In this document: piece by piece, positions 1 to 24,204 of the stretch
How the letters are laid out: each line of letters begins with the position of its first letter
Position numbering within the stretch: position 1 is the stretch's first letter
Made by a program: the position numbers and the translations under genes
Source of the DNA: Candidatus Fervidifonticultor quintus
GTDB taxonomy: Bacteria > Sysuimicrobiota > Sysuimicrobiia > Sysuimicrobiales > Humicultoraceae
Length of the DNA: 24,204 nt
Reading direction: 5' to 3'
NCBI GenBank assembly: GCA_031459535.1
Contig: JAVKIJ010000047.1
Coordinates: 1 to 24,204 of the forward strand
Notes under the pieces: model-generated
The model's input: the letters and a program-made list of their open reading frames with translations, nothing else
Told to the model about the DNA's origin: nothing
Databases searched by the model: none

Positions 1-1
1 T

Positions 2-460
2 CAAGAAGTGCAGGAGATCTACGAGATCCGCATTCCGCTGGAGGCGACGGCCTTGCGCCTGGCCCTCCCGCGCCTCACGCAGCAAGATCTGGAGCGGGCG
101 GAAGCGATTCTGGAGGCGATCGACCGGGAGACCGAGGTGGCCAAGTGGAGCGGTCTCAACCGGGAGTTCCACACGATCCTGTACACACCGGCCGACCGTC
201 CCCGTCTGCTGGCCCTGATCAACACCCTGCGCACGAACGTCGAACGCTACCAGCGCATCTACATCTCGCTCATGCAGCACAAGGTGAACTCCCAACGGGA
301 GCATCGACAGATCCTCGAGGCGTGCAGGCGGCGCGACGTTGGGACGGCCGTGCAGGCGCTCGAGAGCCACTTGGGTCAGGCGGCCCAGGAGCTGGTCGCC
401 TACCTGCGTGATGGGCGTGATAGACGGCTCCGTACTGAGGCCAAACCCGCCTCCCGCTGA
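2..460 (+). CDS. GntR-family transcriptional regulator, FCD ligand-binding domain (5'-truncated by the window edge)
   Basis: Frame is open from base 2 to TGA at 458-460. 'EIYEIRIPLEATALRLA...NREFHTILY...N(T)LR...SQREHRQILEAC...LESHL' is the typical FCD pattern with conserved N/H/H/H residues. The HTH domain would lie upstream of the window. Confidence 0.9.
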   Translation, partial: QEVQEIYEIRIPLEATALRLALPRLTQQDLERAEAILEAIDRETEVAKWSGLNREFHTILYTPADRPRLLALINTLRTNVERYQRIYISLMQHKVNSQREHRQILEACRRRDVGTAVQALESHLGQAAQELVAYLRDGRDRRLRTEAKPASR

Positions 461-505
461 GCCGCGGCGGAAGGCCCAACCTGGGGGGCGATGCTGGAGC
501 GAGAG

Positions 506-1483
506 ATGAGCCGCTTCAAGGTCGTGGTCACCGACTATGTCTTCCCGTCGCTTGATATCGAGCGCGCGGTGCTCGGGGCAGTGGGCGCCGAGCTGGTACC
601 GATGCAGGTGGCCTCAGACGAGCCCCTGCTGGAGGCCGTGGGCGACGCCGATGCCCTGCTGGTGTGCTACGCGCCGGTTACCAGGCGCGTCATCGAACGG
701 GCAGGACGGTGCCGCATCATCGCCCGCTACGGCATCGGCGTCGACAATGTGGACATCGAGGCCGCCTCGGCGAGGGGCATCGTCGTGACCAATGTGCCCG
801 ACTACTGCGTCGAGGAAGTCAGCGACCATGCCCTGGCCCTGCTGCTGGCCTGCGCGCGTCGGGTAGCCTTTCTCGACCGCCGGGTGCGGGCAGGCCGGTG
901 GAGCGCCAAGGACGCCGTGCCTGCCTACCGCTTGCGGGGGCAGGTCCTGGGGCTCGTCGGCTTCGGAAAGATCCCGAGGGACCTGGCCGGCAAGGCCAGG
1001 GCCCTCGGGCTGACGGTCATCGCCTTCGACCCGTACGTGGACGCAGCCAGCATGGTCGCCCACGGGGTGGAGAAGGTCGAGTTCGCCGGCCTGTTGGCCC
1101 GCGCAGACTACGTCTCGATCCATTCCCCCCTCAATCCACAGACCCGGGGTCTGATTGGGGAGGCCGAACTGCGGGCTATGAAGCCAACGGCCTACCTGAT
1201 CAACACGGCCCGCGGTCCCATTGTGAACGAGGCGGCTCTCACAAGAGCCCTGCGGGAACGATGGATCGCCGGTGCCGCGCTCGACGTCCTGGACACGGAA
1301 CCCCCTGCCTCCGACCATCCGTTGCTGGCCCTGGACAACGTGATCCTCACCCCGCACGTCGCATTCTATTCCGAAGAGTCGCTCCAGGAGCTGCAGCGGA
1401 AGGCGTCCGAAGAGGTGGCGAGGGTGCTGGCGGGCCAGCTTCCCAGATATCCCGTTAATACACCCCGGCCGGCAACACCATGA
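506..1483 (+). CDS. D-isomer-specific 2-hydroxyacid dehydrogenase (SerA/CtBP-like subgroup)
   Basis: Motifs RYGIGVDNVD, TNVPDYC, GFGKIP (Rossmann fold), INTARG (Arg), DVLDTEP (Glu), TPHVA (His). GGAG at 496-499 favours ATG 506; ATG 491 is an alternative start. Confidence 0.9.
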   Translation: MSRFKVVVTDYVFPSLDIERAVLGAVGAELVPMQVASDEPLLEAVGDADALLVCYAPVTRRVIERAGRCRIIARYGIGVDNVDIEAASARGIVVTNVPDYCVEEVSDHALALLLACARRVAFLDRRVRAGRWSAKDAVPAYRLRGQVLGLVGFGKIPRDLAGKARALGLTVIAFDPYVDAASMVAHGVEKVEFAGLLARADYVSIHSPLNPQTRGLIGEAELRAMKPTAYLINTARGPIVNEAALTRALRERWIAGAALDVLDTEPPASDHPLLALDNVILTPHVAFYSEESLQELQRKASEEVARVLAGQLPRYPVNTPRPATP

Positions 1484-1502
1484 CAGCGCAAGGAGGGATG
1501 CG

Positions 1503-2732
1503 ATGAGCACGCCGTATTTCACCGATAAGTGGTTCACCAGCCTCCACAACTACGCCGACGAAGTACGGGCGCAGCTCAAGTTCGCCAAGCAGATCCAGTT
1601 CCACGACGTCACGCTGCGGGACGGCGAGCAGCAGGCCGGCGTGGTGTTCACCAAAGACGACAAGATCCGCATCGCCGAGAAACTGGCCGAGGTTGGCGTG
1701 CACCGCATCGAGGCCGGCATGGCCACCGTCTCCAAGGCCGACGAAGAGGCCATTAAGGAGATCGTCCGGCGGAAGCTCGGCCCGAAGATCTTCGCGTTCT
1801 CCCGCTGCATGAAGTCGGACATCCAGCGGGCGGTGGACTGCGGCGTGGAAGGCGTGGTCGTGGAGATACCCAGCAGCGAGCACATCATCGAGCTGGGGTA
1901 CGAGTGGCCCATGCAGAAGGCGATCGACCTCTCCGTGGAGGCGACCCGGTTTGCCAAGGAGCAGGGGCTGTACGTGGTGTTCTTCACTATCGACGCGACT
2001 CGAGCCGACCCCGCGTGGTTCCTGAACCTGATCGAGCACGTGGCGACCCACGGGCACATGGACGCGCTGGTGCTCGTTGATACGTTCGGCGGCGCGTCTC
2101 CGCACGCCATTACCCACTTCACCAGGATGGTCCAGGCGAAGATCCAGAAGCCCCTGGAGGCCCACTTCCACGACGACTTCGGGATGGCCGTGGCCAACAC
2201 GATCATGGCCCTCTCTCTGGGCGTCGAGGTCGCCCATGTCACGGTGTCGTCTCTGGGCGAACGGGCCGGGAACTGCGCGCTGGAGGACCTGGCGCTGGCG
2301 TTGCTCACCTTGTACGGCATCGACACCGGGTTGCGATACGACAAGCTCTATGACCTGTCCAAGCTGGTGCGCCAGTTGGCCAACTTCCCGCTGCCGCCGA
2401 ACCGGCCCATCGTGGGCGACATGCTCTACAAAGTCGAGTCGGGCATCATCGCCACCTGGCTCGCGCGCCTCAAGGAGAAGCGCCCCGTGGAACTGTTTCC
2501 GTTTCACTGGGCGCTCGTCGGGCAGGAGCCGGCCGAGATCGTGCTGGGCAAGGGCAGCGGACGCGATTCCATGCTCTACTACCTGGCGGCCCTCGGCTTT
2601 CGCGTTGACCCGTCCGATCCACGGGTGGACAGGCTCCTGGTCCAAGTCAAGGAGCTGTCGCTGGCCAAGAAGAGCCTGTTGAGCGTAGAGGAGTTCCGGG
2701 TCCTGGCCAACGCCGCGTTCGCCGCGGCCTAG
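1503..2732 (+). CDS. DRE-TIM metallolyase, LeuA/homocitrate-synthase-like, without the Leu regulatory domain; catalytic residues diverged
   Basis: DVTLRDGEQQAG, IEAG, DTFG, HFHDDFGMAVAN (metal HxH), GERAGN, GKGSG. 409 aa. Strong SD AAGGAGGG just upstream. Confidence 0.85.
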   Translation: MSTPYFTDKWFTSLHNYADEVRAQLKFAKQIQFHDVTLRDGEQQAGVVFTKDDKIRIAEKLAEVGVHRIEAGMATVSKADEEAIKEIVRRKLGPKIFAFSRCMKSDIQRAVDCGVEGVVVEIPSSEHIIELGYEWPMQKAIDLSVEATRFAKEQGLYVVFFTIDATRADPAWFLNLIEHVATHGHMDALVLVDTFGGASPHAITHFTRMVQAKIQKPLEAHFHDDFGMAVANTIMALSLGVEVAHVTVSSLGERAGNCALEDLALALLTLYGIDTGLRYDKLYDLSKLVRQLANFPLPPNRPIVGDMLYKVESGIIATWLARLKEKRPVELFPFHWALVGQEPAEIVLGKGSGRDSMLYYLAALGFRVDPSDPRVDRLLVQVKELSLAKKSLLSVEEFRVLANAAFAAA

Positions 2733-2755
2733 CCCGGACCGCGCCGAACCCCGGG

Positions 2756-3826
2756 GTGCCGACCATGCCTGCACACCCATCGAGGGAGGTAGGAGCGAGG
2801 GCAGCCAGCCACATCGGCCTGGTCGTCGATGTACACAGCCACTTCTTCCCCCGCGAGTTTCTCCGCGCCGTTCGGGATCACGGGCCGCCGTATCACGCTT
2901 CCGTGGAACGGCAGGGGGCAGTGGACGTGCTCACCATGCCCGGCCATCCACCGGTGCCGCTCGACCCACAGTTCGTGGACGTGGAGGCCAGGCTGGAGAG
3001 GCTGGAGACCATGGGGATTACCGTGCAGGTACTCTCCCTCTCGCCGCCCATGGTGTACTGGGCGCCGCCCAGAGTCGGCGCGGACCTGGCACGGGCGTTC
3101 AACGACGGCATCGCCGAGATCTCCCGCTCGTACCCCGAGCGATTCGTCGGCGCTGCCACGCTTCCGTTGCAGGACGTACGGGCCGCGGTGGCAGAGGCGG
3201 AGCGGGCTGTCCGGGACCTGGGGATGCGCGGGCTCTATGTGGGGACCAGCGTCAACGGCCAGTATCTCGACGAACCTCAGTTCCGGCCTATCTGGGAGCT
3301 GGCGACCGCCCTGGACGTACCCGTGTTCACCCACCCTCAGACGCACGTGGGTGCAGACGTCCTCGGCCGGTTCCACCTGTTCAACAGCATCGGGTTCCCG
3401 GTCGAGACCGCCACCATGGCTGCCCGGCTCATCTACTCCGGGCTGTTCGAGGCCCATCCGAATCTGCGCGTGGTTCTCGCCCATGGTGGCGGCGTGTTTC
3501 CGCTGCTGCTGGGGCGCCTCGACCACGCCCACCGCCAGCGTGCCGAGTGCCGCAGGACTATTCCGCGGCCCCCTTCGGCGTACGTGCGGCACTTCTACTA
3601 CGACACGGTCACGCATGGCGACCAGGTGCTGCGGTTTCTGGTGGAGACCGTGGGGGCGTCACGGGTGGTCCTGGGAAGCGACGCACCCTATGACATGGCC
3701 GAGGCCGATCCCGTGGGGAGAGTCCGACGGTTGGGAGGGGACGACGCGGTCACGGAGGCGATCCTGGGAGCGACCGCTGGACACCTGCTGGGCATGCGCG
3801 CACACGGAGGTGTACGCCGCACCTAG
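2756..3826 (+). CDS. Amidohydrolase_2-family protein, ACMSD-like (decarboxylase/hydratase type)
   Basis: VVDVHSH (HxH), QVLSLSPP, FNDGIAE, ATLPLQD, FTHP, AHGGG, LGRLD, FYYDT, GSDAPY. The start codon is uncertain (GTG 2756, ATG 2765 or further downstream). Confidence 0.88.
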   Translation: MPTMPAHPSREVGARAASHIGLVVDVHSHFFPREFLRAVRDHGPPYHASVERQGAVDVLTMPGHPPVPLDPQFVDVEARLERLETMGITVQVLSLSPPMVYWAPPRVGADLARAFNDGIAEISRSYPERFVGAATLPLQDVRAAVAEAERAVRDLGMRGLYVGTSVNGQYLDEPQFRPIWELATALDVPVFTHPQTHVGADVLGRFHLFNSIGFPVETATMAARLIYSGLFEAHPNLRVVLAHGGGVFPLLLGRLDHAHRQRAECRRTIPRPPSAYVRHFYYDTVTHGDQVLRFLVETVGASRVVLGSDAPYDMAEADPVGRVRRLGGDDAVTEAILGATAGHLLGMRAHGGVRRT

Positions 3827-3869: not shown

Positions 3870-5129
3870 ATGGCACGACACGAGTTCTTGCAGGGATACC
3901 ACGAATACCAGCCTCGCCGGGTGTTCAGCACCACGGCGACCGACTGGCAGGCGCGCGTGGACTTTGCCAGGATGCGGGCCGACAGGCTGCAGCGCGCCAG
4001 GGAGCAGATGGACCGGTTCGACCTGAGCGGCCTGGTGCTCTTCGCCGGCGAGAACGTGCGCTACGTCACCGGCGTCTTCCAGGGCAACTGGAAGAACAAC
4101 ATCTTCATCCGGTACTGCGTGCTCCCCCGCGGAGGTCGCCCGGTGCTCTTCGAGACCGTGGGATCGGACATGGTGTGCGCCCAAATCGACGCGCCCTGGC
4201 TCGAAGCCGAGGTCCGGCCCGCCATGACCTGGAAGTGGGCCGAGGGCGCGGAGCCCGAGATGGCCGGTCGCATGGCACAGAGCGTGTTCGACGTCCTCAA
4301 GCAGAACGGCGTCCACACCGGACGCATCGGTATCGACGTGATGGACATGATGGCCTATCAGGCGCTCACCGGGCTGGGGCTCAACATCGTCAACGCCTGG
4401 CCGGCCATGTCCGCTGCCCGGGTGATCAAGACCCCGGACGAGCTGGAGTGCTTGAAGATCTCTGCGGCCCATGGTGACGCCGCCATGTGGATGGCCATGC
4501 ACGAGTGGGCCAAGCCGGGGGTGCGCGAGTCTGAGGTGTGCGCCAGGGTCAATGAGTACCTGTATCGCAGCGGGTTCGACTTCGTCTACGACATCATCGT
4601 CGCCAGTGGAGGGAACACGAGCCCCTATCGGCGCTGGCACACCGACAAGGTGATCCGTCAGGGCGACCTCATGATCGTGGACATCAACGCCATCGGGCCA
4701 GGGGGGTACTTCATCGATTTCGTCCGGTGCTGGAAGGTCGCCGCCAAACCCACGGCCAAGGAGAAGGACCTCTACAAGCGGTGCTACGACTCTCTCTATG
4801 CCGGCATCGACGCCATGAAGCCCGGTGCCACCACGGCCGACGTGGCGGCCAAGTTCCCCGAGTACGACGACGACAAGTACGGAAGCGTCAGCCTCCAGCA
4901 GTTCGCCCACAGTATCGGCCTGTCGCTGTACGAGGGCATGTGGGTCTCGCGGGCGTATTCGTTCAAGCACCCCGCCGAGATCAAACAGAACATGTACTTC
5001 GCCATTGAGACGTTCAGCGGCTTCCCCGGGCTGGAGCAGACGGTCAGGCTCGAGGAGAACATCTGCATCACCGACAAGGGCGCGGAGCGGTTCACGCTGT
5101 GCGAGCATCCCGACTACTGGTGGGAGTAG
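3870..5129 (+). CDS. M24 (pita-bread fold) family protein with creatinase-type N-domain, probably non-peptidase/DddP-like; copy 1
   Basis: SD AAGGAGG at 3857-3863 before ATG 3870. Motifs ENVRYVTG, ARVIKTPDELE, KPGVRESEV; metal ligands in VDIN..GYFIDFVR, AHSIGL, AIETF, VRLEEN. Ends with tandem TAG TAG. Confidence 0.88.
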   Translation: MARHEFLQGYHEYQPRRVFSTTATDWQARVDFARMRADRLQRAREQMDRFDLSGLVLFAGENVRYVTGVFQGNWKNNIFIRYCVLPRGGRPVLFETVGSDMVCAQIDAPWLEAEVRPAMTWKWAEGAEPEMAGRMAQSVFDVLKQNGVHTGRIGIDVMDMMAYQALTGLGLNIVNAWPAMSAARVIKTPDELECLKISAAHGDAAMWMAMHEWAKPGVRESEVCARVNEYLYRSGFDFVYDIIVASGGNTSPYRRWHTDKVIRQGDLMIVDINAIGPGGYFIDFVRCWKVAAKPTAKEKDLYKRCYDSLYAGIDAMKPGATTADVAAKFPEYDDDKYGSVSLQQFAHSIGLSLYEGMWVSRAYSFKHPAEIKQNMYFAIETFSGFPGLEQTVRLEENICITDKGAERFTLCEHPDYWWE

Positions 5130-5153: not shown

Positions 5154-5606
5154 ATGAGGCTGCCGGATCGGGCTGCCGGGCTGGTCTTCGGGCTGTTCGG
5201 GCTGTTCGTTGCGGCCAGCGCGGTCAGGCTTGGTCTGGGCAAGTGGCTGAGTCCTGGCCCGGGGTTCTTCCCCTTCGGGGTCGGGCTCGCCACCTTGGTG
5301 CTGGGCGTAGCCCTCGCCCTGCCCGCGGCCAGGGGTGGGGCTGGCAGGGGTACCGCAGCCCGTTCCGGAGCAGGCGCGGTCAAGACAGCCGGGGCCATCG
5401 CGGTGCTTGCAGCCTACGCCCTGCTCCTGGAACGGCTCGGCTTTGCGCCAACCACCTTCCTGTTCATTGTGGCGTGGGTGGGCGGCTTGGAGCGCACCCG
5501 CTGGAAGGGGACCGTTTCCCTGGCCGCGGCGGTCACGGCAGCGATGTACGCGATCTTCGTGAGGTGGCTGCAGGTGCCGTTGCCGTCCGGCGTGCTGGGG
5601 AGGTAG
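5154..5606 (+). CDS. tctB: Tripartite tricarboxylate transporter small membrane subunit TctB
   Basis: 150 aa, about 4 hydrophobic segments, PGPGFFP motif, LLERLGF, C-terminal 'F..WLQVPLPSG'; lies directly upstream of tctA. Confidence 0.9.
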   Translation: MRLPDRAAGLVFGLFGLFVAASAVRLGLGKWLSPGPGFFPFGVGLATLVLGVALALPAARGGAGRGTAARSGAGAVKTAGAIAVLAAYALLLERLGFAPTTFLFIVAWVGGLERTRWKGTVSLAAAVTAAMYAIFVRWLQVPLPSGVLGR

Positions 5607-5636: not shown

Positions 5637-6722
5637 ATGATCGAGGGTCTCGCGAGCGGCTTTCTGGTGGCTCTTCGGCCGGCGAATCTCTTCTTCGCCG
5701 TCGTTGGGGTCGTGCTCGGGACCATCGTGGGCGTCCTGCCCGGCATCGGCCCCCCCACCACGGTGGCGCTGCTGCTGCCGCTCACGTACGGTGTGGACCT
5801 GACCGGCGCCATCATCATGCTGGCGGGCATCTTCTACGGCGCCATGTACGGAGGCTCCACGACGTCCATCCTGGTCAACCTGCCCGGCGAGGCTGCCTCA
5901 GTGGTCACCACCTTCGACGGCTACCAGATGGCCAAGCAGGGCCGGGGCGGAGCCGCGCTGGCCATCGCCGCCGTGGGGTCGTTCGTGGCCGGAACGGTGG
6001 GTGTCGTGGGGCTGACCTTCCTGAGCCCGCCTCTGGCAGAGGTGGCGCTGCGCTTCGGTCCACCCGAGTACCTGGGCCTCACCTTGCTGGGGCTCACCCT
6101 GGTGGCCTACCTCGCCGCCGGTTCCATGCTGAGAGGCCTCCTGATGGCCGGGGGAGCGCTGCTGCCCATGCTGGCCCTGGGGATTCCGGCTACCGCCGTC
6201 TCCGCCATGTTCATGGCGGCGCTCAACCTGAAGGGCATCAGGGTCGGGCCGCTGATCAACCACGATCATCCCGGCCTCCTGTATCTGATCTACGGCCTGC
6301 TCATTGTGTCCAACATCATCATGTACGTGTCTGCCCTACTGCTCATCAGACCCGCGGCGCGGATCTTCTCGCTCCCCAGGGAGTTGCTCATGCCCATCAT
6401 CTCCGTGGTGTGCGTGGTGGGGGCGTACGAGGTCGGCCTGTCCATGTTCGACGTGGGCATCATGTACCTCGTCGGCATCGTGGGGTATGTGCTGCTCCGC
6501 CTGGGCTTTCCGCTCGCGCCGGCCGTCCTCGGCGCGATCCTAGGGCCCATCGTCGATGAGAACCTCCGTCGCACCCTGATGGTCTATGAGGGCCGGAGTG
6601 TGCTGGAGCTGGTCGGCCGTCCCCTTGGACTACTCATCATGGTCATTGTGGTGCTCACACTGTGGGAGGGGGTGACGCGCGCCAGGCGGGCGCCGGCCCT
6701 GCGCAAGGCGCTGGCAGGCTAG
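5637..6722 (+). CDS. tctA: TctA permease with a large in-frame internal deletion (361 aa); possibly a pseudogene or chimera
   Basis: The N-half has GVLPGIGP, YGAMYGGSTTSILVNLPGE, DGYQMAKQG and FGPPEY. The C-half has GALLPMLALGIP, GIRVGP, PLAPAVLGAILGPIVDENLRR. The central TctA motifs are absent. Confidence 0.85.
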   Translation: MIEGLASGFLVALRPANLFFAVVGVVLGTIVGVLPGIGPPTTVALLLPLTYGVDLTGAIIMLAGIFYGAMYGGSTTSILVNLPGEAASVVTTFDGYQMAKQGRGGAALAIAAVGSFVAGTVGVVGLTFLSPPLAEVALRFGPPEYLGLTLLGLTLVAYLAAGSMLRGLLMAGGALLPMLALGIPATAVSAMFMAALNLKGIRVGPLINHDHPGLLYLIYGLLIVSNIIMYVSALLLIRPAARIFSLPRELLMPIISVVCVVGAYEVGLSMFDVGIMYLVGIVGYVLLRLGFPLAPAVLGAILGPIVDENLRRTLMVYEGRSVLELVGRPLGLLIMVIVVLTLWEGVTRARRAPALRKALAG

Positions 6723-6783
6723 CCCGCGGGGGCGCGACCTGTGGATACGACGCGGTGAGCATGCCGGAGAGGTGGTGGAGCCC

Positions 6784-11860: not shown

Positions 11861-11885
11861 ACAGGATGTGAGGGAGACGCTGGCC

Positions 11886-16937: not shown

Positions 16938-17816
16938 GTGACGGCGATGCCGCTGCGGTACCTCGTGCCGAGCACGGTCGGAGAAGCCACCCGCATGCTG
17001 GCAGAGCAGGGAAACGGCGCCCGTGTGATCGCCGGCGGCACCGACCTCGTGGTGAGGATGCGGGGTGGGCTGGTGCGCCCCACCGCCCTCGTGGACATCA
17101 CCCGCATTCCCGAGCTCTCGGTGATCGCCCGGCGCGACGGCACCCTGGTCATCGGGGCAGCGGTCACGCTCGCGGCGTTGACGGCATCTGCGGATGTGGC
17201 GCTCCTGGTGCCCGTCGTGGCCGAGGCAGCGGCCCAGATGGGCGCGGTGCAACTGCGCAACCTGGCGACCGCAGGCGGCAACCTGGCCAGTGCCGTGCCA
17301 TCGGCGGATCTGGCGCCGCCTCTCCTGGTGGCGGACGCCACCGCCCGCATCGCCGGCCCCTCTGGGGAGCGGACTCTACCCGTGGAGGCATTGTTCTTGG
17401 GACCGCACCGCAGTGCGCTGCGCCCGGATGAAGTGCTGACCCGCCTCGAGATCCCGATCGGGGCAGGGGAAGGGGGTGGGGCCTTCCTCAAGTTCGGCAA
17501 GCGGAACGCTCAGGTATTGGCCGTAGTGAACGCCGCCGCCTGGGTGCGGATCGTCGGTGGCCTCATCGACGACGCGCGGATCGCCCTGGGCGCGGTGGCG
17601 CCGACCCCGATCAGGGCCCGGGCGGCTGAGGCCCTGCTGCGGGGCCAGCCGCCCGCGCCCGATCTCCTCGACGATGCCGGTCGGGCTGCGGCGGCCGAGG
17701 CCCGACCGATCTCGGACATGCGCGCCTCCGCCGGCTTCCGGCTGGAGCTCTGCCGCGTGCTGGTGCGTAGGGCGTTGGAGCGAGCCGTCCGTCGGGCCGG
17801 GAGGCCGGGAGCGTGA
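16938..17816 (+). CDS. Molybdenum hydroxylase FAD-binding subunit (CoxM/NdhF-like)
   Basis: IAGGTDL, IGAAVT, QLRNLATAGGNL, PSADLAPPL, RIALGAVAPTP, PISDMRASAGFR. ATG 16947 is an alternative start. Confidence 0.92.
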   Translation: MTAMPLRYLVPSTVGEATRMLAEQGNGARVIAGGTDLVVRMRGGLVRPTALVDITRIPELSVIARRDGTLVIGAAVTLAALTASADVALLVPVVAEAAAQMGAVQLRNLATAGGNLASAVPSADLAPPLLVADATARIAGPSGERTLPVEALFLGPHRSALRPDEVLTRLEIPIGAGEGGGAFLKFGKRNAQVLAVVNAAAWVRIVGGLIDDARIALGAVAPTPIRARAAEALLRGQPPAPDLLDDAGRAAAAEARPISDMRASAGFRLELCRVLVRRALERAVRRAGRPGA

Positions 17817-17819
17817 CGC

Positions 17820-18314
17820 ATGGAACCTGACATGACCTATGAGGTGACGTTCCAGTTGAACGGCCGGCAGGTGACGGCGCAGGTGGAGGCCGATGAGAGC
17901 CTGGCGTGGGTCCTGCGCGAACGACTCGGCATGGTGGGGACCAAAGTAGGATGTGGGACCGGCGATTGCGGTGCCTGCACTGTGCTGCTCGACGGCCAGC
18001 CCATATGCAGCTGCCTGCTGCTGGCCGCCAAGGCGCAGGGGCGGGAGGTGACGACCATCGAAGGGGTCGGCGCGCCCGGCCGCCTGCATCCGGTGCAACA
18101 GGCCTTCGTGGAGCACGGGGCGCTGCAGTGCGGCTTCTGCGGCCCGGGGATGATCGTCTCGGCCGTCGCCCTCGTGGCCCGCACCCCGCACCCTACCGAA
18201 CGCGACATCCGCGAAGCCATCGCAGGGAACCTGTGCCGCTGCACCGGGTATGCGAAGATTGTCGAAGCGATTCTCGCCGCCTCTCGTGGCAGCCTCAGGG
18301 GGCCAACGCCATGA
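17820..18314 (+). CDS. Molybdenum hydroxylase 2x[2Fe-2S] subunit (CoxS/NdhS-like)
   Basis: GTKVGCGTGDCGACTV...SC and QCGFCGPGM...GNLCRCTGY. Confidence 0.95.
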   Translation: MEPDMTYEVTFQLNGRQVTAQVEADESLAWVLRERLGMVGTKVGCGTGDCGACTVLLDGQPICSCLLLAAKAQGREVTTIEGVGAPGRLHPVQQAFVEHGALQCGFCGPGMIVSAVALVARTPHPTERDIREAIAGNLCRCTGYAKIVEAILAASRGSLRGPTP

Positions 18315-19612
18315 GGACGATCACGCGTCCCGCGCCTCCCCCGCTGGTCGAAGAGGTCGCCGGGGGGGTCGTCGGCCGTCGCGTCAGTCGTCACGACGCG
18401 CTCCTGCAGGTGACCGGTCAGGTGCTCTACGGCGAGGACATGCGGGCCCCAGGGATGCTCTGGGCCAAGGCCGTACGGAGCCCGCACCCACACGCCCGCA
18501 TCCTCGAGATCGATCCCTCGGAGGCTCTGGCCGCCCCGGGCGTGCGGGGTGTCATTACGGCGCGGGATGTGCCCCGCAACCGGTACGGGTTCACGCACGA
18601 GGACCAGCCGGTCCTGGCCGACGACCGCGTCCGCCATGTGGGCGAGGCGGTGGCGGTGGTGGCGGCGGAGACGCTGCGCCTGGCGGAGGAAGCGGTGCAG
18701 AAGGTGCGTGTCCACTACGAGCGGCTCCCCGCCGTGCACGACCCCCTGGAAGCCAGACACCCCGAGGCGGTTCGGGTCCACGAAGGCGGCAACGTCGCCA
18801 CCCACATCAGGATCCGCGATGGCGACGTCGCGCAGGGGTTCCACGAGGCCGACATGCGCGTCGAGGAAGAGTTTGCGACCACGTTCGTCGAGCACTGCCA
18901 CCTCGAACCGCACGCCGGCCTGGCGGTTCCCAACCTGGATGGCAGCCTCACCATCTACTCGTCGGTACAGCGGCCGTTCCTGGTCGCGGCCGACACGGCC
19001 AAGGTCCTGGCGATGCCGCAGAACCGCATCCGCGTCATCCAGACCGGCGTGGGCGGAGGGTTCGGCGGCAAGAACGAGATGACCCTCGAACCCTGGATCG
19101 CCCTGCTGGCGCTGCGCACCGGCCGGCCTGTCAAGATGGTGTTCACCCGGGAAGAGGAGTTCCAGGCTACCACGGTGCGCCACCCGTACCGCATGCGCTA
19201 TCGCACCGGGGTGCGCCGTGACGGCACGCTGGTGGCCCGAGAGATCGAGATCGTCAGCGACTGTGGGGCGTACGTCTCGTGGGGCGCGTCCACGCTGGCC
19301 AAGGCGGCCATCCATGCGGCCGGCCCCTACGTCATCCCCCACGTGAAGATTGACGGCTATCTCGTCTACACCAACAATCCGGTCGGCGGCGCCATGCGGG
19401 GGTTCGGGGTGCCGCAGGTGGGCTTCGCCTCCGAGTGTCACACCGATGCCGTGGCCGCCGCCGTCGGGGTGGACCCGATCGCGTTTCGGCTCAAGAACGG
19501 CCTGCGTGACGGCGGGCGCCTGCCGACGGGCCAGGTGCTGGAGCGGGTGACGCTGGAATTGACACTCCGGCGCGCGGTCGAACTGGCCGGTTGGGAGAGG
19601 ACGGTGAGCTAG
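18311..19612 (+). CDS. Molybdenum hydroxylase large molybdopterin subunit, N-terminal part (NdhL-like)
   Basis: ATG 18311 overlaps the FeS-subunit stop (ATGA). VTGQVLYGED, RSPHPHARI, HCHLEP, GGGFGGK, RHP, GPY.IP, TNNPVGGAMRGFGVPQ. Ends at TAG 19610-19612; 433 aa. Confidence 0.92.
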   Translation: MRTITRPAPPPLVEEVAGGVVGRRVSRHDALLQVTGQVLYGEDMRAPGMLWAKAVRSPHPHARILEIDPSEALAAPGVRGVITARDVPRNRYGFTHEDQPVLADDRVRHVGEAVAVVAAETLRLAEEAVQKVRVHYERLPAVHDPLEARHPEAVRVHEGGNVATHIRIRDGDVAQGFHEADMRVEEEFATTFVEHCHLEPHAGLAVPNLDGSLTIYSSVQRPFLVAADTAKVLAMPQNRIRVIQTGVGGGFGGKNEMTLEPWIALLALRTGRPVKMVFTREEEFQATTVRHPYRMRYRTGVRRDGTLVAREIEIVSDCGAYVSWGASTLAKAAIHAAGPYVIPHVKIDGYLVYTNNPVGGAMRGFGVPQVGFASECHTDAVAAAVGVDPIAFRLKNGLRDGGRLPTGQVLERVTLELTLRRAVELAGWERTVS

Positions 19613-20604
19613 TGCACAAGCGTGGTCGCGGCGTCGCGTGGATGGCGTACCCCATCGGGTTCACGTCCTATGCCAACCCGAGCAGCGCCTTTGTGAAGGT
19701 GAACCAGGACGGCTCGGTCGTGGTTTGGACCGGAGCGGCCGACGTAGGCCAGGGGTCGACCACTGCCCTCGCGCAGATTGCCGCAGAGGCGCTGGGTGTG
19801 CCCCTGGACGCCGTCGTCATGGTCACCAGCGACACCCTGCAGACCCCCGCTGACCTGGGGTCGGTGGCCAGCCGCGTGACTTACATCGCAGGGAACGCCA
19901 TCGTGCAGGCGTGCCAGCAGGCCAAGCGGGTCCTGCTCGAAGTGGCCGCCGAGGAGATGGGGATTGGCCCCGAGGGACTGGACAGCCGGGACGGGTGGAT
20001 CTATGTGCGCGACCTGCCAGAGCGGCGGGTCCGGCTGGCGGACGTCGCCCGAAAGGCAGAGGCTGTCCGTGGCCGTCCCGCCATCGGCGCGGGATCGTAC
20101 AATCCTCCGACGACCTTTCTCGACCCGGAGACGGGTCACGGGAAGCCCTACAACACCTACGTCTACGCGGCGCAGACGGCCGAAGTGGAGGTGGACACCG
20201 AAACGGGCGAGGTGCGGGTGCTGCGCCTGACGGCGGCCCACGACTGCGGGCGAGCCGTCAATCCCCTGCTGGTCGAAGGACAGATCGAGGGCGGGCTGGC
20301 CATGGGGCTGGGCTACGCGCTCAGCGAGGAAATGGTGACCGTCGACGGGCGCGTGCTCAACACCACGTTCGCCGACTACCTGATCCCCACCGCGGCAGAC
20401 GTTCCCCCCATGACCGTGGCGATCGTGGAGCAGCCTGACCCGACGGGCCCGTTTGGAGCCAAGGGCGTCGGTGAGCCCACCCTGCTGCCGACCGCGCCGG
20501 CGATCGTCAACGCCATCTACGACGCCGTGGGGATTCGTCTCCGCGAGCTCCCCATAACGGCCGAGCGGGTGCTGGCGGCGCTGCGCGACAAGGAAAAGGG
20601 GTAG
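19612..20604 (+). CDS. Molybdenum hydroxylase medium molybdopterin subunit, C-terminal part (NdhM-like)
   Basis: GTG 19612 overlaps the upstream TAG (TAGTG) and follows SD GGAGAGG at 19594-19600. MHKRGRGV..., DVGQG, VASR, EVEVDTETG, HDCG.AVNP..VEGQIEGG, GAKGVGEP (catalytic Glu); 330 aa. Confidence 0.92.
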   Translation: MHKRGRGVAWMAYPIGFTSYANPSSAFVKVNQDGSVVVWTGAADVGQGSTTALAQIAAEALGVPLDAVVMVTSDTLQTPADLGSVASRVTYIAGNAIVQACQQAKRVLLEVAAEEMGIGPEGLDSRDGWIYVRDLPERRVRLADVARKAEAVRGRPAIGAGSYNPPTTFLDPETGHGKPYNTYVYAAQTAEVEVDTETGEVRVLRLTAAHDCGRAVNPLLVEGQIEGGLAMGLGYALSEEMVTVDGRVLNTTFADYLIPTAADVPPMTVAIVEQPDPTGPFGAKGVGEPTLLPTAPAIVNAIYDAVGIRLRELPITAERVLAALRDKEKG

Positions 20605-20618: not shown

Positions 20619-21974
20619 GTGGACCTGGGTATCGTGGGCGGCACGCTGGTCACGCCGTCTGCCGTCTTTCGGGGCGACCTGTACATCGCCCAGGGCCGCA
20701 TCGCCGCCATCAGCAGCGACCGCCTCCCCGCCGCCCGCACCATCGAGGCAGACGGCCTGCACGTGCTGCCGGGGGTGGTGGACAGCCACGTGCACTTCAT
20801 GGACCCCGGTGCGCCCGAGCGCGAAGACTTCACGACCGGCAGCGCCGCGGCTGCTGTGGGCGGCGTGACCACGGTCATCGAGCACACCCACGCACACCCC
20901 GTGGTGGACGCCGAAGCGCTGCGGGAAAAGGCGGCCTACCTGCGAGACCGATCCCTCGTGGACTTCGGGCTGGGCGCGCATGTCTGGCCCGACCGGCTCG
21001 ACGAGCTGGCCGGCGTCTGGGCGGCCGGGGCGCTGCTCCTAAAGGCCTTCACGTGCACGACCCACGGCATACCGGGCATCCTCCCGGGGGACCTGCTGCG
21101 GTTGTTCCGGCAGGTGGCCGCCATCGATGCCGTCTGCCTGGTGCACTGCGAGGATGAGTTCATCACCGCCGACGCTGAGCGGCGTCTCAAGGCAGCCGGC
21201 CGCACCGATCCGGGCATTCTCCCCGCCTGGCGCTCGCGCGAGGCCGAGCTGGTGGCGACCGCAACTGTGGTGCTCCTGGCGCGCCTGACCGGGGCGCGAG
21301 TGGTCGTGGCCCACGCCAGCCATCCGGCCGTCGTCGACCTGGTCACCCGCGAGGCCGGGTTGGGTGCCCGGGTCTGGGCCGAGAGCTGCCCGCAGTACTT
21401 CCACCTCAACGAGGACGAGGTGCTCTCGCACGGCTCATTCCGGAAGTTCACCCCACCGGCCCGGGCGCGCTCGCCCGAGGACGCGGCCCAGATGTGGCAG
21501 CGGCTGCGGCAGGGGGGCATCGCATACGTCGCCACCGACCACGCGCCGGCGACCAGGGCCCAGAAGCAGGAGGGCGACATCTGGCAGGTGCACTTCGGGC
21601 TCCCGGGAGTGGAGACGACGCTTCCCTTGATGCTCAATGCGGTGCACGACGGGCACCTGACGCTGCAGCGCCTGGTCGAGGTGCTCGCCGAGATGCCCGC
21701 GCGGCTCTACGGGGTCTACCCCCGGAAGGGGACCCTGCAGATCGGTGCCGACGCCGACCTGACGATCGTTGACCTCTCGGGGGAACGCGTGCTGCGCGAC
21801 GAAGATGTGGTGTCCAAAGCCGGCTGGACCCCCTACGCCGGCCGTCGCCTGCACGGTCAGGTGGTGATGACCCTGGTGCGCGGGCGAGTGGTCGCCCAGG
21901 GGGGCAAGCCTGTCACTGAGCCCGGCTGGGGGAGATGGATACACGGACGTCACTACCCTGAGTCACCACCCTAA
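20619..21974 (+). CDS. Cyclic amidohydrolase (allantoinase / dihydroorotase / hydantoinase family)
   Basis: PGVVDSHVH, GSAAAAVGGVTT, Lys in LLKAF (candidate carbamylation site), VHCED, AHAS, ESCPQY, ATDHAP, KGTLQIGADAD. SD GAGGAGG upstream of the GTG. Confidence 0.9.
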   Translation: MDLGIVGGTLVTPSAVFRGDLYIAQGRIAAISSDRLPAARTIEADGLHVLPGVVDSHVHFMDPGAPEREDFTTGSAAAAVGGVTTVIEHTHAHPVVDAEALREKAAYLRDRSLVDFGLGAHVWPDRLDELAGVWAAGALLLKAFTCTTHGIPGILPGDLLRLFRQVAAIDAVCLVHCEDEFITADAERRLKAAGRTDPGILPAWRSREAELVATATVVLLARLTGARVVVAHASHPAVVDLVTREAGLGARVWAESCPQYFHLNEDEVLSHGSFRKFTPPARARSPEDAAQMWQRLRQGGIAYVATDHAPATRAQKQEGDIWQVHFGLPGVETTLPLMLNAVHDGHLTLQRLVEVLAEMPARLYGVYPRKGTLQIGADADLTIVDLSGERVLRDEDVVSKAGWTPYAGRRLHGQVVMTLVRGRVVAQGGKPVTEPGWGRWIHGRHYPESPP

Positions 21975-21989: not shown

Positions 21990-23237
21990 ATGAAGAAGCT
22001 GCTGGTGCTACTCCTCGTGCTAGGCCTGTTCGGTTCTATTGGCCCCGGCTCCACGCTGGCGGCGGCCAACCCCGACAGGATCAAGGTCGGTATCCTGTTG
22101 CCGCTCACCGGCCCGTTCGCGGCGGTCGCCGAGACCCAGAAGAACGGCGCCCTCCTGGCGATTGATGTCGTCAACAGCCGGGGCGGTCTCGCCATGCCCT
22201 GGGGCAAGGTCCAGGTGGAAGGCGTCGTCGCCGACGATGAAGCCAAACTCGACGTCGGCGTGCGGCGCTATCGCTACCTGGTCGGGGAAGGTGTGAAGGG
22301 CGTGGGCGGCCAGACCTGGGCGCCGCTCGCCTATGCGATCAACGCCCTGGTTCAGAAGGAACCCTTGCCATACTTCCCGACCTGTGTCATGGCCAAGGAG
22401 GCCTTCTTGAAGGGCAAGCTGGCCGATTCGACGTTCGCCGTGGCATTCAGCCCGTGGACTGTGGGCTACATGAGCGGCTCGGCGGCGATCAAGGTCCTCG
22501 GAAAGAAGCGTATCTTCTTCCTGGCGCGCGCCGATAGCTGGGGCTGGGACATCCGAGACGGCGTCTATGCTGCCGCCAAGGAGTTCGGGGCCCAGACCGT
22601 CGGGTACGATGAGGTACCCCTGGGCACCAGCGACTTCACCACGGTCCTCCAGAAGGTCCGCGCCGCCAAGCCCGATGTGTTCATCTCGGCCCAGTTTGGC
22701 GCCGATGCCGTGGCGCTGCTCAAGCAGGTCCATCAGATGGGGCTCGGGGCTGAGATGACCATCTTCAACGCGTTCATCACCAACGTGGTTGCCAAGGGCA
22801 TCCCTGCCGCGGCCCTGGAGGGTGTCTACGCCATGCACTACTTCTACTACGACCTCAGCGACCTGGGCTACACCGGCGTCGCGAAGAGTGCCAAGGCGTT
22901 CACCGACCTCTATACGGCCAAGTACCGCACGCCGCCCGACGCGTACGCCACCATCGCCTACACCGCGTTCTCGGAGATGTTCAGGGGGTTTGAGGGCGCC
23001 AAGTCCTTCGACCCCAAGGGCGTGGCGGCCGCGCTGATGGCGAACAACGGCCAGTTCACGACGGTCAAGGGGCCGGCCAGGTGGCGCCGGGACCACTCTG
23101 CGGTCTACCAGTTTGCCGCGTTCCTGGTCAGGGGAAAGGGCCCCGGAGAGCAGAAGCACGAGTGGGACCTGTTCAAGGTCTTGGGCTACCAGGGCGGCGA
23201 GGCGGTGCTCCCGCCGCTGAGGGACCTCGGCTACTAG
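21990..23237 (+). CDS. Second Liv-like ABC substrate-binding protein (type I PBP)
   Basis: SD AAGGAGG, signal peptide MKKLLVLLLVLG...TLAAA, IKVGILLPLTG, DDEAK, DSWG, PLGTSDFTTVLQKVRAAKPDV. Confidence 0.9.
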   Translation: MKKLLVLLLVLGLFGSIGPGSTLAAANPDRIKVGILLPLTGPFAAVAETQKNGALLAIDVVNSRGGLAMPWGKVQVEGVVADDEAKLDVGVRRYRYLVGEGVKGVGGQTWAPLAYAINALVQKEPLPYFPTCVMAKEAFLKGKLADSTFAVAFSPWTVGYMSGSAAIKVLGKKRIFFLARADSWGWDIRDGVYAAAKEFGAQTVGYDEVPLGTSDFTTVLQKVRAAKPDVFISAQFGADAVALLKQVHQMGLGAEMTIFNAFITNVVAKGIPAAALEGVYAMHYFYYDLSDLGYTGVAKSAKAFTDLYTAKYRTPPDAYATIAYTAFSEMFRGFEGAKSFDPKGVAAALMANNGQFTTVKGPARWRRDHSAVYQFAAFLVRGKGPGEQKHEWDLFKVLGYQGGEAVLPPLRDLGY

Positions 23238-23256
23238 GCGAGGCAGACGGGATGAT

Positions 23257-23290
23257 GCCCCGGCGGCGTCCGGCAGGGCGCTGCCGGGGC
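23257..23290 (+). other. Strong stem-loop directly downstream of the binding-protein gene (mRNA stabiliser or partial terminator)
   Basis: GCCCCGGCGGCGTCC-GGCA-GGGCGCTGCCGGGGC: 15-bp stem with two G.U pairs and a GGCA loop; no U-tract follows. Confidence 0.6.
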
Positions 23291-23312
23291 CGATCCTCCA
23301 CGAGGGCCGGCC

Positions 23313-24089
23313 GTGAGCCCACAAGCGGGTGCGGAACTCCTCAGGACGGTCAACCTGACCAAGCGCTTCGGGGAACTGGTGGCCGTCGACCACGTGAACT
23401 ACGTGCTGCGTGAGAACGAGGTCGCGGGCATCGTCGGGCCCAACGGGGCCGGCAAGACCACGTTCTTCAACCTCCTAACGGGCTACTACCCCCCAGACGA
23501 GGGCACGATCCTGTACCGGGGAGAGGACATCACGCGCGCGACGCCCCAGAAGCGCATCGAGATGGGCATAATGCGTACCTTCCAGCTCACCTCGACCTTC
23601 GACACCCTCACGGCAATCGACAACCTGGTCCTGGCCTATTTCGGGGTGCACAAGAAGCCCTCGCTGCTCTCGTTGCTGCTGACGACCTGTGCGCGGCACC
23701 GCCACGAGCCCAAGATCGCCGAGGCCCTGGAGATCTTCGACCTGGAGGAGGCGCGCGACCGGCAGGTCAGGCACCTCAGTCTGGGGGAGAAACGACGGTT
23801 GGAGATTGCCATGGCCATCCTGGCCGAACCCCGGGTGCTGTTGCTGGACGAACCGCTGGCGGGGCTCAGCGAGCTGGAGATCAAGAGCGTGCTGGGCGTC
23901 CTGCGCCAGCACATCGGCCGGCAGACGATCCTGATCGTGGAGCACAAGATCTCCCAGGTGGAGGACTTCCTGGAGCGGCTCACCGTCATGCACGAAGGCA
24001 GGATCATCGCCGACGGCGGGTACGCGGAAGCCCTGCAGGATCCCGAGGTGCGGCGCAGCTACTGGCAGATCACCACCTCTGCCGGGTGA
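23313..24089 (+). CDS. livG: HAAT-type ABC transporter ATP-binding protein, LivG-like (second system)
   Basis: GPNGAGKTT, RTFQ, LSLGEKRRLEIA, LLLDEP, VEHK. Confidence 0.9.
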   Translation: MSPQAGAELLRTVNLTKRFGELVAVDHVNYVLRENEVAGIVGPNGAGKTTFFNLLTGYYPPDEGTILYRGEDITRATPQKRIEMGIMRTFQLTSTFDTLTAIDNLVLAYFGVHKKPSLLSLLLTTCARHRHEPKIAEALEIFDLEEARDRQVRHLSLGEKRRLEIAMAILAEPRVLLLDEPLAGLSELEIKSVLGVLRQHIGRQTILIVEHKISQVEDFLERLTVMHEGRIIADGGYAEALQDPEVRRSYWQITTSAG

Positions 24090-24103
24090 GGCGCAACTCT
24101 TTG

Positions 24104-24204
24104 ATGGAGCCTAGCGCGGTGGACAACGCTGACATCCTGGTCGTAAGAGATCTGAACGTGGCGTACGGTGAGTCGAAGCTGGTCTTCGACGCCCATCTGA
24201 GCGT
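24104..24204 (+). CDS. Start of a LivF-like ABC ATP-binding protein (3'-truncated by the window edge)
   Basis: Not in the ORF track. Translation from ATG 24104 gives MEPSAVDNADILVVRDLNVAYGESKLVFDAHLS, the typical 'L.V.DLNVAYG' LivF N-terminus. GTG 24119 is an alternative start. Confidence 0.7.
   Translation, partial: MEPSAVDNADILVVRDLNVAYGESKLVFDAHLS

Follow-up and report, generated by a model that had tools for sequence, protein, structure and literature searches.

We analyzed a 24,204-base stretch of DNA from Candidatus Fervidifonticultor quintus (GenBank assembly GCA_031459535.1, contig JAVKIJ010000047.1), hereafter termed the window. The window is an entire contig (G000:C81) of a 3.1-Mb metagenome-assembled genome (MAG) with 138 contigs and a completeness of 88.9%, and its GC content is 0.682 vs 0.687 for the genome. 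Pfam, NCBIfam, and the translations identified 26 genes, all lying on the plus strand, including those for a Mo hydroxylase, two proteins of the M24 fold (M24a and M24b), an isopropylmalate synthase (IPMS)-like enzyme, a cyclic amidohydrolase, a cysteine amidase, and two importers. We regard this gene set as a conserved, undescribed modular variant of catabolism that is initiated by a Mo hydroxylase and apparently free of oxygenases. An earlier note, made from the letters of the window without database searches, had proposed the genes as a candidate undescribed pathway for an N-heterocyclic compound.

Gene content and boundaries of the window

The 26 genes are listed below; identities to G030 refer to the genome of a relative belonging to a different family, and L numbers denote loci of other genomes or metagenomes, both of which are described later.

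2..460, plus strand: g01, GntR-family regulator, FCD domain only (PF07729, 3.2e-27), its helix-turn-helix missing because the contig begins inside the gene; its G030 counterpart (60% identity) is a 229-aa GntR+FCD gene located ahead of the same genes.
491..1483, plus strand: g02, D-2-hydroxyacid dehydrogenase 'a' (2HADHa), phosphoglycerate dehydrogenase/glyoxylate-reductase-like (PF02826, PF00389; no NCBIfam equivalog cut-off reached).
1503..2732, plus strand: g03, HMGL-like DRE-TIM enzyme of the IPMS/homocitrate/citramalate-synthase branch, 409 aa, no regulatory domain (PF00682, 6e-62); nearest to the catalytic domains of IPMS and homocitrate synthase (TIGR02090, 307 bits, under the cut-off of 485; best PDB match IPMS 3rmj, 9e-44).
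2756..3826, plus strand: g04, Amidohydro_2/ACMSD-like metal decarboxylase or hydrolase (PF04909, 1e-34; best PDB match human ACMSD 4ign, 8e-52).
3870..5129, plus strand: g05, M24a, DddP-like di-metal M24 protein with Creatinase_N (PF00557, PF01321), the most conserved gene of the system.
5154..5606, plus strand: g06, TctB-family small membrane protein, part of a Tct remnant (PF07331, 1e-23).
5637..6722, plus strand: g07, TctA with an in-frame internal deletion of ~140 residues (PF01970 in two stretches).
6772..7119, plus strand: g08, small single-domain cupin of 115 aa with a His/His/Glu...His metal motif (PF07883, 3e-12); 75-88% identical copies lie beside M24a or HMGL genes in L028-L031, L037, L039, and L047.
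7124..7978, plus strand: g09, permease of the LivH/UrtB type, ATP-binding cassette (ABC) importer 1 (PF02653; 79% identical in G030).
7994..9019, plus strand: g10, ABC permease of the LivM/UrtC type, importer 1 (PF02653; 72% identical in G030).
9016..9780, plus strand: g11, ABC ATPase of the LivG/UrtD type, importer 1, with a GTG start overlapping the g10 stop (PF00005, PF12399).
9791..10486, plus strand: g12, ABC ATPase of the LivF/UrtE type, importer 1 (PF00005; TIGR03410, 242 bits, under the cut-off).
10601..11860, plus strand: g13, binding protein SBP1 of the Peripla_BP_6 family, with a signal-peptide-like N-terminus, importer 1 (PF13458, 6e-71; 76% identical in G030).
11868..12626, plus strand: g14, isochorismatase-like cysteine amidase (PF00857, 2e-36; Asp/Lys/Cys motif read from the translation), with weak matches to RutB, biuret hydrolase, and N-carbamoylsarcosine-amidase-like proteins.
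12623..13657, plus strand: g15, Zn-dependent alcohol/polyol dehydrogenase 'a' (ZnADHa; PF08240, PF00107), with the CxxCxxCx7C structural-Zn motif and the Cys...His-Glu catalytic motif.
13662..14921, plus strand: g16, M24b, prolidase-like di-metal M24 protein with Creatinase_N (PF00557, 5e-53).
14925..15899, plus strand: g17, D-2-hydroxyacid dehydrogenase 'b', glyoxylate-reductase-like (PF02826; NF009714, 331 bits, under the cut-off of 455).
15924..16937, plus strand: g18, Zn-dependent alcohol dehydrogenase 'b' (PF08240, PF00107; Zn motifs read from the translation).
16938..17816, plus strand: g19, FAD subunit of the Mo hydroxylase, NdhF-like (PF00941, PF03450).
17820..18314, plus strand: g20, 2x[2Fe-2S] subunit of the Mo hydroxylase, NdhS-like (PF01799, PF00111).
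18311..19612, plus strand: g21, large Mo-binding subunit (N-terminal half) of the Mo hydroxylase, NdhL-like, 433 aa (PF01315, PF02738).
19612..20604, plus strand: g22, medium Mo-binding subunit (C-terminal half) of the Mo hydroxylase, NdhM-like, 330 aa, with a GTG start sharing one base with the g21 stop (PF20256).
20619..21974, plus strand: g23, cyclic amidohydrolase of the hydantoinase/allantoinase/dihydroorotase/dihydropyrimidinase family (PF01979; best PDB match L-hydantoinase 1gkr, 3e-81); its translation shows the HxH, Lys, His, His, and Asp motifs, and the scores against the dihydroorotase, allantoinase, dihydropyrimidinase, and ErtD models were 253-303 bits, all under cut-off.
21990..23237, plus strand: g24, binding protein SBP2 of the Peripla_BP_6 family, importer 2 (PF13458, 2.5e-57), which travels with the Mo hydroxylase; G007, G030, L110, L111, L148, L174, and L187 each have a copy of 73-85% identity next to a split Mo hydroxylase.
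23313..24089, plus strand: g25, ABC ATPase of the LivG type, importer 2 (PF00005; 67-78% identical beside SBP2 in G007, G030, and L110).
24104..24204, plus strand: g26, start of a LivF-type ATPase of importer 2, cut by the contig end; the frame resembles the N-terminus of the gene that follows the ATPase gene in G030.

The coding fraction of the window is 0.975, and the intergenic gaps of the 25 complete or 5'-cut genes range from -4 to 114 nt. The arrangement agrees with the earlier description of about 26 co-oriented genes with short gaps or overlaps, and every gene class listed in that description was recovered on the plus strand by Pfam, NCBIfam, and the translations. The observation itself is therefore confirmed, and its interpretation is supported in part. 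Pfam matches were obtained for 25/25 plus-strand frames scanned as genes and for 0/16 of the longest minus-strand open reading frames (ORFs), by which hidden minus-strand genes are ruled out. No terminator-like site was found on the plus strand in positions 1-20000. The ORF at 2829-5129 (766 aa) is a high-GC run-on; the genuine genes are those at 2756-3826 (ACMSD-like, in another frame) and 3870-5129 (M24a), and the latter is preceded by a ribosome-binding site, GGAAGGAGG. The catalytic motifs are intact in M24a and M24b, as judged from alignment, and in g04, g14, g15, g18, and g23, as read from the translations.

Both contig ends cut genes, namely g01 at the 5' end and g26 at the 3' end. Synteny with G030 places positions 1-5182 of another contig of the same genome (G000:C42, 5.2 kb; locus L190) as the continuation of the 3' end. 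A circular element is ruled out, as the contig ends have no overlap and the 3' end continues onto G000:C42. The end of G000:C42 carries the last permease of importer 2, which is 80% identical to that of G030 and cut by the contig end. Convergent to this permease are an S15/CocE-type hydrolase (80% identical to a gene of the G030 cluster), an FAH-family protein, and a cut CstA. The binding protein of the same importer, SBP2, gave no close match among solved structures (best, 64 bits) and thus no hint of its ligand.

Three importers had been expected in the window, of which two are ABC importers and the third is a remnant of a Tct importer. Residues 14-171 and 172-343 of TctA align to residues 13-170 and 311-480 of a 501-aa TctA, residues 171-310 being skipped. 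Moreover, no PF03401 match for TctC was found in the window, and Tct genes were found in 0/79 related M24a loci. Because of the deletion, the missing TctC, and the absence of Tct genes from these loci, we consider this importer as a remnant, and g07 is probably non-functional, judging from its alignment. The pair of TctB and deleted TctA (5154-6722), which lies between M24a and the cupin, was seen in this genome only.

The split Mo hydroxylase and the M24 proteins

The Mo hydroxylase is present as anticipated, but it is encoded by four genes, each with the expected Pfam domains, and its large subunit is split. The gene order (F-S-L-M) and the split point are the same as in NdhFSLM, the nicotinate dehydrogenase (NDH) of Eubacterium barkeri (PDB 3HRD), the two halves being 433/330 aa here and 425/330 aa there. 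L matched 3hrd_A (425 aa) at 8e-97 with 328 bits (next match, 200 bits; residues 20-431 to 7-424), and M matched 3hrd_B at 3.6e-90 with 306 bits (next match, 211 bits; residues 1-329 to 1-330, end to end). 3HRD is the best solved match for both halves, and the likeness to NdhFSLM is much stronger than could be known from the letters alone. The catalytic Glu of the xanthine dehydrogenase (XDH) family lies in a GVGEP motif aligned with the GVGEP motif of 3hrd_B (Glu289 by hand count), and its column is invariant in 5/5 orthologs. On the other hand, since 53 of the first 103 aligned columns of M are identical to those of NdhM by hand count, the two enzymes should not be assumed to share a substrate. 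The four-subunit composition of the E. barkeri enzyme is described in the available part of PMC10331938.

The split was preserved in all of the Mo orthologs seen, which were found in three of 40 relatives and in seven of 50 other genomes (one genome being common to both). The ortholog frames are 457-574 aa long in the three relatives and 408-574 aa in the seven other genomes, and the unsplit paralogs are mostly ~800-900 aa. A frameshift as the origin of the split is ruled out, because 3HRD is divided at the identical point and the orthologs keep the division. Mo large-subunit paralogs are abundant in the lineage, with seven matches in the genome studied here and up to 20 per genome in its relatives, and nearly all of them are unsplit.

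The gene for SelD was detected above the cut-off in four of five genomes (G000, G007, G030, and G078) with one in-frame TGA in each, and thus the organism uses selenium. SelD of the genome studied here (G000:C46:26773-27696) is probably a selenocysteine-containing protein. YqeB (TIGR03309), a maturation marker for Mo hydroxylases with a selenium-dependent Mo site, exceeded the cut-off only in G078 (1/5 genomes) and was not found in the three Armatimonadota genomes searched, including the one studied here.

In M24a, D271, D283, H347, E380, and E395 align with the di-metal ligand columns of prolidase 1pv9. M24a is therefore not a creatinase-type protein, as all five ligands are kept. The AlphaFold (AF2) model of M24a (pLDDT 86.6) found its best structural match in the dimethylsulfoniopropionate (DMSP) lyase DddP, with a TM of 0.82-0.83 over ~400 columns including the N-terminal domain, vs 0.66-0.74 for prolidases and ~0.67-0.70 for ectoine hydrolase and creatinase. 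DddP is a non-peptidase M24 protein that acts on a small carboxylate. M24a resembles DddP (PDB 4rzy, 4s01, and 4b28) in fold and in the di-metal ligand set, but the sequence identity is only ~20% and the genomic context here is unrelated to DMSP. Likewise, the best full-length NCBIfam match of M24a was DddP with 98 bits against a cut-off of 600. The PepQ model (cut-off 630) gave 80 bits for M24a and 161 bits for M24b. M24b is 30% identical to M24a with all five ligands aligned, and its best PDB matches are prolidases (6e-43).

M24a is 66-93% identical across 79 loci from several phyla, and 1,322 homologs, likewise spread over several phyla, were found at E<=1e-60. All of the named homologs among the best 120 listed are annotated as 'Xaa-Pro peptidase / aminopeptidase P family', and M24a fell only into generic M24 clusters in the ESM Atlas. 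A homolog of 73% identity is named from Thermaerobacter composti.

These two sets of proteins bear on an explanation that involves no heterocycle. The Mo enzyme would be an aldehyde oxidoreductase (AOR) that, together with the four dehydrogenases and the DRE-TIM enzyme, oxidizes a hydroxylated carbon skeleton, and the hydrolases would free this skeleton from an amide- or peptide-like compound (proline-containing, N-acylated, or cyclic dipeptides). The FAD and FeS subunits indeed scored best or near-best, albeit below the cut-off, against the NCBIfam models of the Sulfolobus-type glyceraldehyde dehydrogenase. L, in contrast, scored 328 bits against nicotinate dehydrogenase vs 192 for D. gigas AOR and 112 for PaoC, the match to nicotinate dehydrogenase being better by >95 bits. 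The affinity of M24b to prolidases fits a peptide-like substrate, as do the S15 X-Pro-dipeptidyl-peptidase-type hydrolase found in both G030 and G000:C42 and an amidase in G030, whereas M24a is structurally nearest to the non-peptidase DddP rather than to prolidases. Both Zn-dependent alcohol dehydrogenases (Zn-ADHs) are true alcohol dehydrogenases, consistent with the oxidation of a hydroxylated skeleton; nevertheless, heterocycle routes typically involve a decarboxylase of the ACMSD type, an enzyme of the hydantoinase type, and a cysteine amidase. A paralogous theme in L140, L141, L145, and L146 also joins a split Mo hydroxylase, M24, HMGL-like, and Zn-ADH genes. L146, the sole one of the four that is fully annotated, adjoins an IlvD/EDD dehydratase and a DHDPS-type aldolase, both typical of sugar-acid routes. 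Taking both sides, we consider this explanation to be quite improbable.

In the paralogous theme, the identities are 37-38% for the HMGL-like proteins (with an HCS_D2 domain), 32-34% for the M24 proteins, and 57-58% for the split Mo hydroxylases, and a GntR gene is also present. L146 additionally carries a major facilitator superfamily transporter and a thioesterase.

Recurrence of the genes in three modules

We examined the distribution of the genes in a set of 40 relatives, including five same-genus genomes and two unpublished genomes (G013 and G022, both without a Mo ortholog). A scan of one genome per species, anchored on M24a, found 185 relatives, and 79 loci (66-93% identical) were kept; L027 lies in the same genome as G023, a same-family relative, and L032 is the G030 contig. 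Neighboring genes were counted at an identity of >=40% and a query coverage of >=60%, with the best query per region. Mo L was searched for at E<=1e-115 in the whole genomes of 50 of the 78 remaining M24a loci, the other 28 being outside this search. Finally, a metagenome scan anchored on the M subunit found at least 355 relatives, and 80 loci with 55-84% identity were kept, 27 of which are >=10 kb.

Among the 40 relatives, Mo orthologs (>=80% identity) were found in three (G007, G023, and G030) and M24a orthologs in seven, which include all three Mo carriers; neither was found in the five same-genus genomes. By their record titles, the 79 M24a loci belong to Armatimonadota, Bacillota, Actinomycetota, Dormibacterota, Spirochaetota, Planctomycetota, a betaproteobacterium, and Nitrospinota. 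The closest counterpart of the window is G030, in which 22/25 genes occur in a different order within C3:31377-61089 of a 72.7-kb contig, and only TctB, TctA, and the cupin lack counterparts in the cluster. Thus, the genes do co-occur elsewhere: besides the 22/25 genes in G030, subsets of them recombine on independent contigs of other phyla, and the refutation named in the earlier note, a lack of co-occurrence in other genomes, was not borne out. The flanks of the G030 cluster comprise IclR, TctCBA, a PfkB kinase, and phosphate transport genes upstream and a methyltransferase downstream. Three extra genes are interspersed among the shared ones at 49158-55377 of the same contig, with products of 467 aa (an amidase-signature amidase), 574 aa (an S15-type hydrolase), and 268 aa (a C_GCAxxG_C_C protein).

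In the 43 M24a loci of >=15 kb, the commonest neighbor was 2HADHa (29 loci), followed by the IPMS-like enzyme (23), M24b (14), the ACMSD-like enzyme (12), and LivH (11). Rarer neighbors were the isochorismatase-like enzyme (8), ZnADHa (8), the cyclic amidohydrolase (7), and Mo L (2), and no Tct gene was found. The genes fall into three modules. Module A is M24a, 2HADHa, and the IPMS-like enzyme, often accompanied by the ACMSD-like decarboxylase and the cupin. Module B comprises the cyclic amidohydrolase, the cysteine amidase, M24b, the two Zn-ADHs, 2-hydroxyacid dehydrogenase b, and importer 1. Module C is the split Mo hydroxylase with its own Liv-type importer (importer 2 with SBP2).

Modules A and B were found together in 20/79 M24a loci. 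A and C were together in L032, L062, L065, and L070 as well as in the metagenome contigs L125, L128, and L134, and B and C in L113, while the Mo hydroxylase and the SBP2 importer were together in L110, L111, L148, L174, and L187. Of the 80 contigs anchored on Mo M, three carry M24a, one carries module B, and five carry the SBP2 importer. The gene order varies among contigs, being 2HADHa-HMGL-M24a-ZnADH-SBP2-ABC-MoFSLM in L065, MoFSLM-M24a-2HADHa-HMGL-ZnADH in L128, GntR-ZnADH-M24a-MoFSLM in L070, and LivHM-SBP1-MoFSLM-SBP1-LivGF-ZnADHa-x-cycAH-M24b in L113. Ahead of the gene block of L070 (4177-8780; a Bacillota MAG) lie genes for a sodium:solute symporter, a PEP_hydrolase-like protein (PF09370), and a UPF0261 protein, the last two forming a pair. 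The conservation of the modules and their recombination are observed directly, as are the gene content, the motifs, and the NDH-type split.

The same distribution bears on whether the modules belong together at all. They may serve different substrates and lie side by side only through the accretion of an island; for example, the Mo hydroxylase and SBP2 may handle one compound, M24a, 2HADHa, and the IPMS-like enzyme another, and the hydantoinase-like enzyme and the cysteine amidase a cyclic ureide or imide. The modules were indeed found far more often alone: A occurred without B or C in 56/79 loci (three of these with the SBP2 importer), and the Mo genes appeared without other modules in 64/80 contigs, only 27/80 being >=10 kb. 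In G007, the Mo hydroxylase and the SBP2 importer are on the same contig as M24a but 72 kb away, and the window itself holds a plainly unrelated insertion, the Tct remnant. However, A+B, A+C, and B+C all recur on independent contigs in varied orders and with tight spacing. In the Armatimonadota sample, the Mo enzyme was found only where M24a was also present (3/3), and the five same-genus genomes possess neither. Furthermore, the Mo genes of L113 lie inside the importer-1 operon of module B. Because all pairwise combinations of the modules recur independently, we regard the modules as one metabolic system rather than a product of chance, and we judge a mere accretion of unrelated modules to be unlikely.

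Known routes and the proposed pathway

Pfam recognized no oxygenase family among the genes of the window, in its 16 longest minus-strand ORFs, or in the G030 flanks. More specifically, a flavin monooxygenase, a ring-cleaving dioxygenase, and a maleate isomerase are missing from the 26 genes, the 16 minus-strand ORFs, and the G030 flanks, and uricase is missing from the G030 flanks, which are fully visible. The earlier observation that the diagnostic partners of known routes are missing thus extends beyond the window, as the flanks of G030 have no oxygenase, maleate isomerase, or uricase either. Pfam also detected no B12-binding/mutase, ICL/PEP-mutase, or Fe-S flavoprotein reductase family in the window or the annotated region of G030. 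The literature, searched outside subscription journals and supplements, yielded no description of this gene set.

The upper part of the nicotinate route of E. barkeri is similar in logic, in that a water-derived hydroxylation is followed by hydrolytic C-N cleavage without O2. The later steps of this fermentation involve 6-hydroxynicotinate reductase, the B12-dependent 2-methyleneglutarate mutase, and dimethylmalate lyase. The families expected for the reductase, the B12 mutase, and the dimethylmalate lyase were not found in the window or G030 by Pfam; the window has M24, IPMS-like, ACMSD-like, cysteine amidase, and Zn-ADH genes instead. The pic (picolinate) and aerobic nic (nicotinate) clusters of Alcaligenes and Pseudomonas share other components. 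The nic route has a Mo hydroxylase and the isochorismatase-like amidase NicF, and the Mo enzymes of both pic and nic are not known to be of the split NDH type. In the available part of the descriptions of pic, a Mo hydroxylase, the Amidohydro_2 decarboxylase PicC, and the isochorismatase-like amidase PicF are present. Both pic and nic require a monooxygenase, a ring-cleaving dioxygenase, a deformylase, and a maleate isomerase, whereas neither the window nor the G030 flanks yielded any of these four.

The hxn route of Aspergillus nidulans is the nearest match in enzyme classes (Zn-ADHs, cyclic amidohydrolase, cysteine amidase, and 2-hydroxyacid dehydrogenases), as far as the available part of its description goes. 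There, the succession of enzymes is a Mo hydroxylase, an NAD dehydrogenase of the polyol type (with a hydroxylated piperidinone as its substrate), a cyclic imide hydrolase, and an amidase, and the end product is an alpha-hydroxy acid (PMC9304392). According to the same part, however, hxn requires two flavin monooxygenases and an old yellow enzyme-type ene-reductase, which are absent here, and its imidase and amidase belong to other families; M24, IPMS-like, and ACMSD-like enzymes do not appear in it. By analogy, the nearest parallels would be hxn for the lower part of the pathway and E. barkeri for the upper part. The reductive urate (2,8-dioxopurine) pathway of E. coli and gut anaerobes is O2-independent and uses an XDH-family Mo enzyme followed by stepwise hydrolytic cleavage of the ring and ureido groups, as the available part of PMC12507026 describes. 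Its Mo enzyme, in the same description, works as a reductase, and Pfam detected no YgeX-like PLP-dependent lyase in the window, YgfK and SsnA having had no dedicated search. We rule this pathway out as a match on its enzyme families as given there. The dipicolinate dip cluster is also ruled out, being based on a monooxygenase and Mo-independent in the available part of PMC11472048. Altogether, the enzyme make-up is unlike that of every route compared, and the one-to-one fit to a characterized route, which the earlier note had named as a refutation, was not found.

As the window is a whole contig cut at both ends, it has to be weighed whether it shows part of a known pathway, with the remaining genes located elsewhere, the candidates being the nicotinate fermentation of E. 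barkeri, aerobic nic/pic, ureide/pyrimidine, and creatinine degradation. The nic, pic, rut, and hydantoin routes do include members of the isochorismatase-like, Amidohydro_2, and cyclic amidohydrolase families, and the Mo enzyme is NDH-like. Nevertheless, the flanks in the 72.7-kb contig of G030 contain no oxygenase, maleate isomerase, B12 mutase, Fe-S flavoprotein reductase, or uricase, and the continuation on G000:C42 adds the S15 hydrolase, the FAH-family protein, and CstA. Furthermore, the most conserved parts of the system (M24a and the IPMS-like enzyme) have no counterpart in these routes, and no equivalog model fits. A known pathway in disguise is thus very improbable.

On balance, we lean towards the view that the cluster is a real and horizontally mobile catabolic island, in which the three modules cooperate in the oxygenase-free breakdown of an N-heteroaromatic carboxylate. 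Within this reading, a pyridine carboxylate such as nicotinate is a conceivable substrate, albeit a doubtful one. We infer the class of the substrate, each individual reaction, and the order of the steps as follows. Importer 2 with SBP2 would take up the N-heteroaromatic carboxylate, and the NDH-like Mo enzyme would add a water-derived oxo or hydroxy group next to the ring nitrogen without using O2. The product may then pass into the more widespread core of modules A and B, in which the NAD(P) dehydrogenases would interconvert ring hydroxyls and carbonyls. M24a, M24b, and the cyclic amidohydrolase are candidates for cutting the C-N bonds, either hydrolytically or by elimination. The cysteine amidase would deamidate the resulting amide with the release of ammonia, the ACMSD-like enzyme may take off the carboxyl group, and the 2-hydroxyacid dehydrogenases and the IPMS-like enzyme would process the 2-hydroxy/2-oxo acid.

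A more specific version of this proposal concerns a widespread family of modular, oxygenase-free pathways, of which the window would be one example. In these, the non-peptidase, DddP-like M24a would carry out the decisive step on a hydroxylated N-heterocycle, either a C-N cleavage or the opening of the ring, coupled to the IPMS-like enzyme and the 2-hydroxyacid dehydrogenase, and the split Mo hydroxylase with its importer would be a plug-in for heteroaromatic acids such as nicotinate. We put this version forward tentatively, as a possibility that we would not bet on.

Several observations weigh against cooperation of the modules on an N-heteroaromatic acid. No gene of the window reached an NCBIfam equivalog cut-off, and every reaction assigned above is a family-level guess. 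The IPMS-like g03 is, by family, a Claisen condenser with no obvious catabolic role. No enzyme for ring dearomatization is evident in the window, since g15 and g18 are classical Zn-ADHs and not ene-reductases; we had considered the two as ring ene-reductases analogous to Hnr, an assignment dropped in view of the classical catalytic and structural Zn motifs in both. The phrase 'apparently without oxygenases' in the earlier note stands insofar as no Pfam oxygenase family was found, but the metal-site cupin g08 (115 aa) could be O2-dependent and leaves the claim unproven, so that 'no oxygenase' means no recognizable oxygenase. The system is not confined to anaerobes either, as an M24a homolog is named from T. 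composti and the genus Thermaerobacter is aerobic.

The distribution of the Mo hydroxylase belongs on the same side. A Mo L ortholog was found in only 7/50 M24a genomes, with no match in the remaining 43/50. An ortholog of Mo L or Mo M (>=55% identity) was present within 10 kb of M24a in 4/79 loci and missing in 75/79. In addition to the solitary Mo genes on the 64/80 contigs mentioned above, split Mo hydroxylases occur in unrelated contexts in L133 and L160. The Mo hydroxylase is thus accessory to a commoner core, and the core can therefore do without Mo hydroxylation, and its substrate need not contain a heteroaromatic ring. The genes do not form one fixed 26-gene pathway but three modules with an accessory Mo hydroxylase. 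In L160 (9218-15721), NuoE-like, NuoF/GltD-like fusion, and formate-dehydrogenase-like genes come after the other split Mo hydroxylase, which may have different electron-transfer partners.

The breakdown of N-heterocycles without O2 is known in genetic detail for very few substrates, such as nicotinate in E. barkeri and, recently, urate. The cluster ties a rare Mo hydroxylase of the split NDH type to enzymes with no assigned role. The two binding proteins, the regulator, and the homolog named from a cultured species, T. composti, provide practical entry points. If the modules are unrelated, the finding shrinks to a well-documented catabolic island. If M24a opens the ring, it would be a further, non-homologous way of opening pyridines without a dioxygenase, besides enamidase, and a new function of the M24 fold. 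If the functional link among the modules holds true, the cluster would represent a route for nitrogen-rich organic acids that is both new and common in the environment, and a large body of 'Xaa-Pro peptidase' annotation would be corrected.

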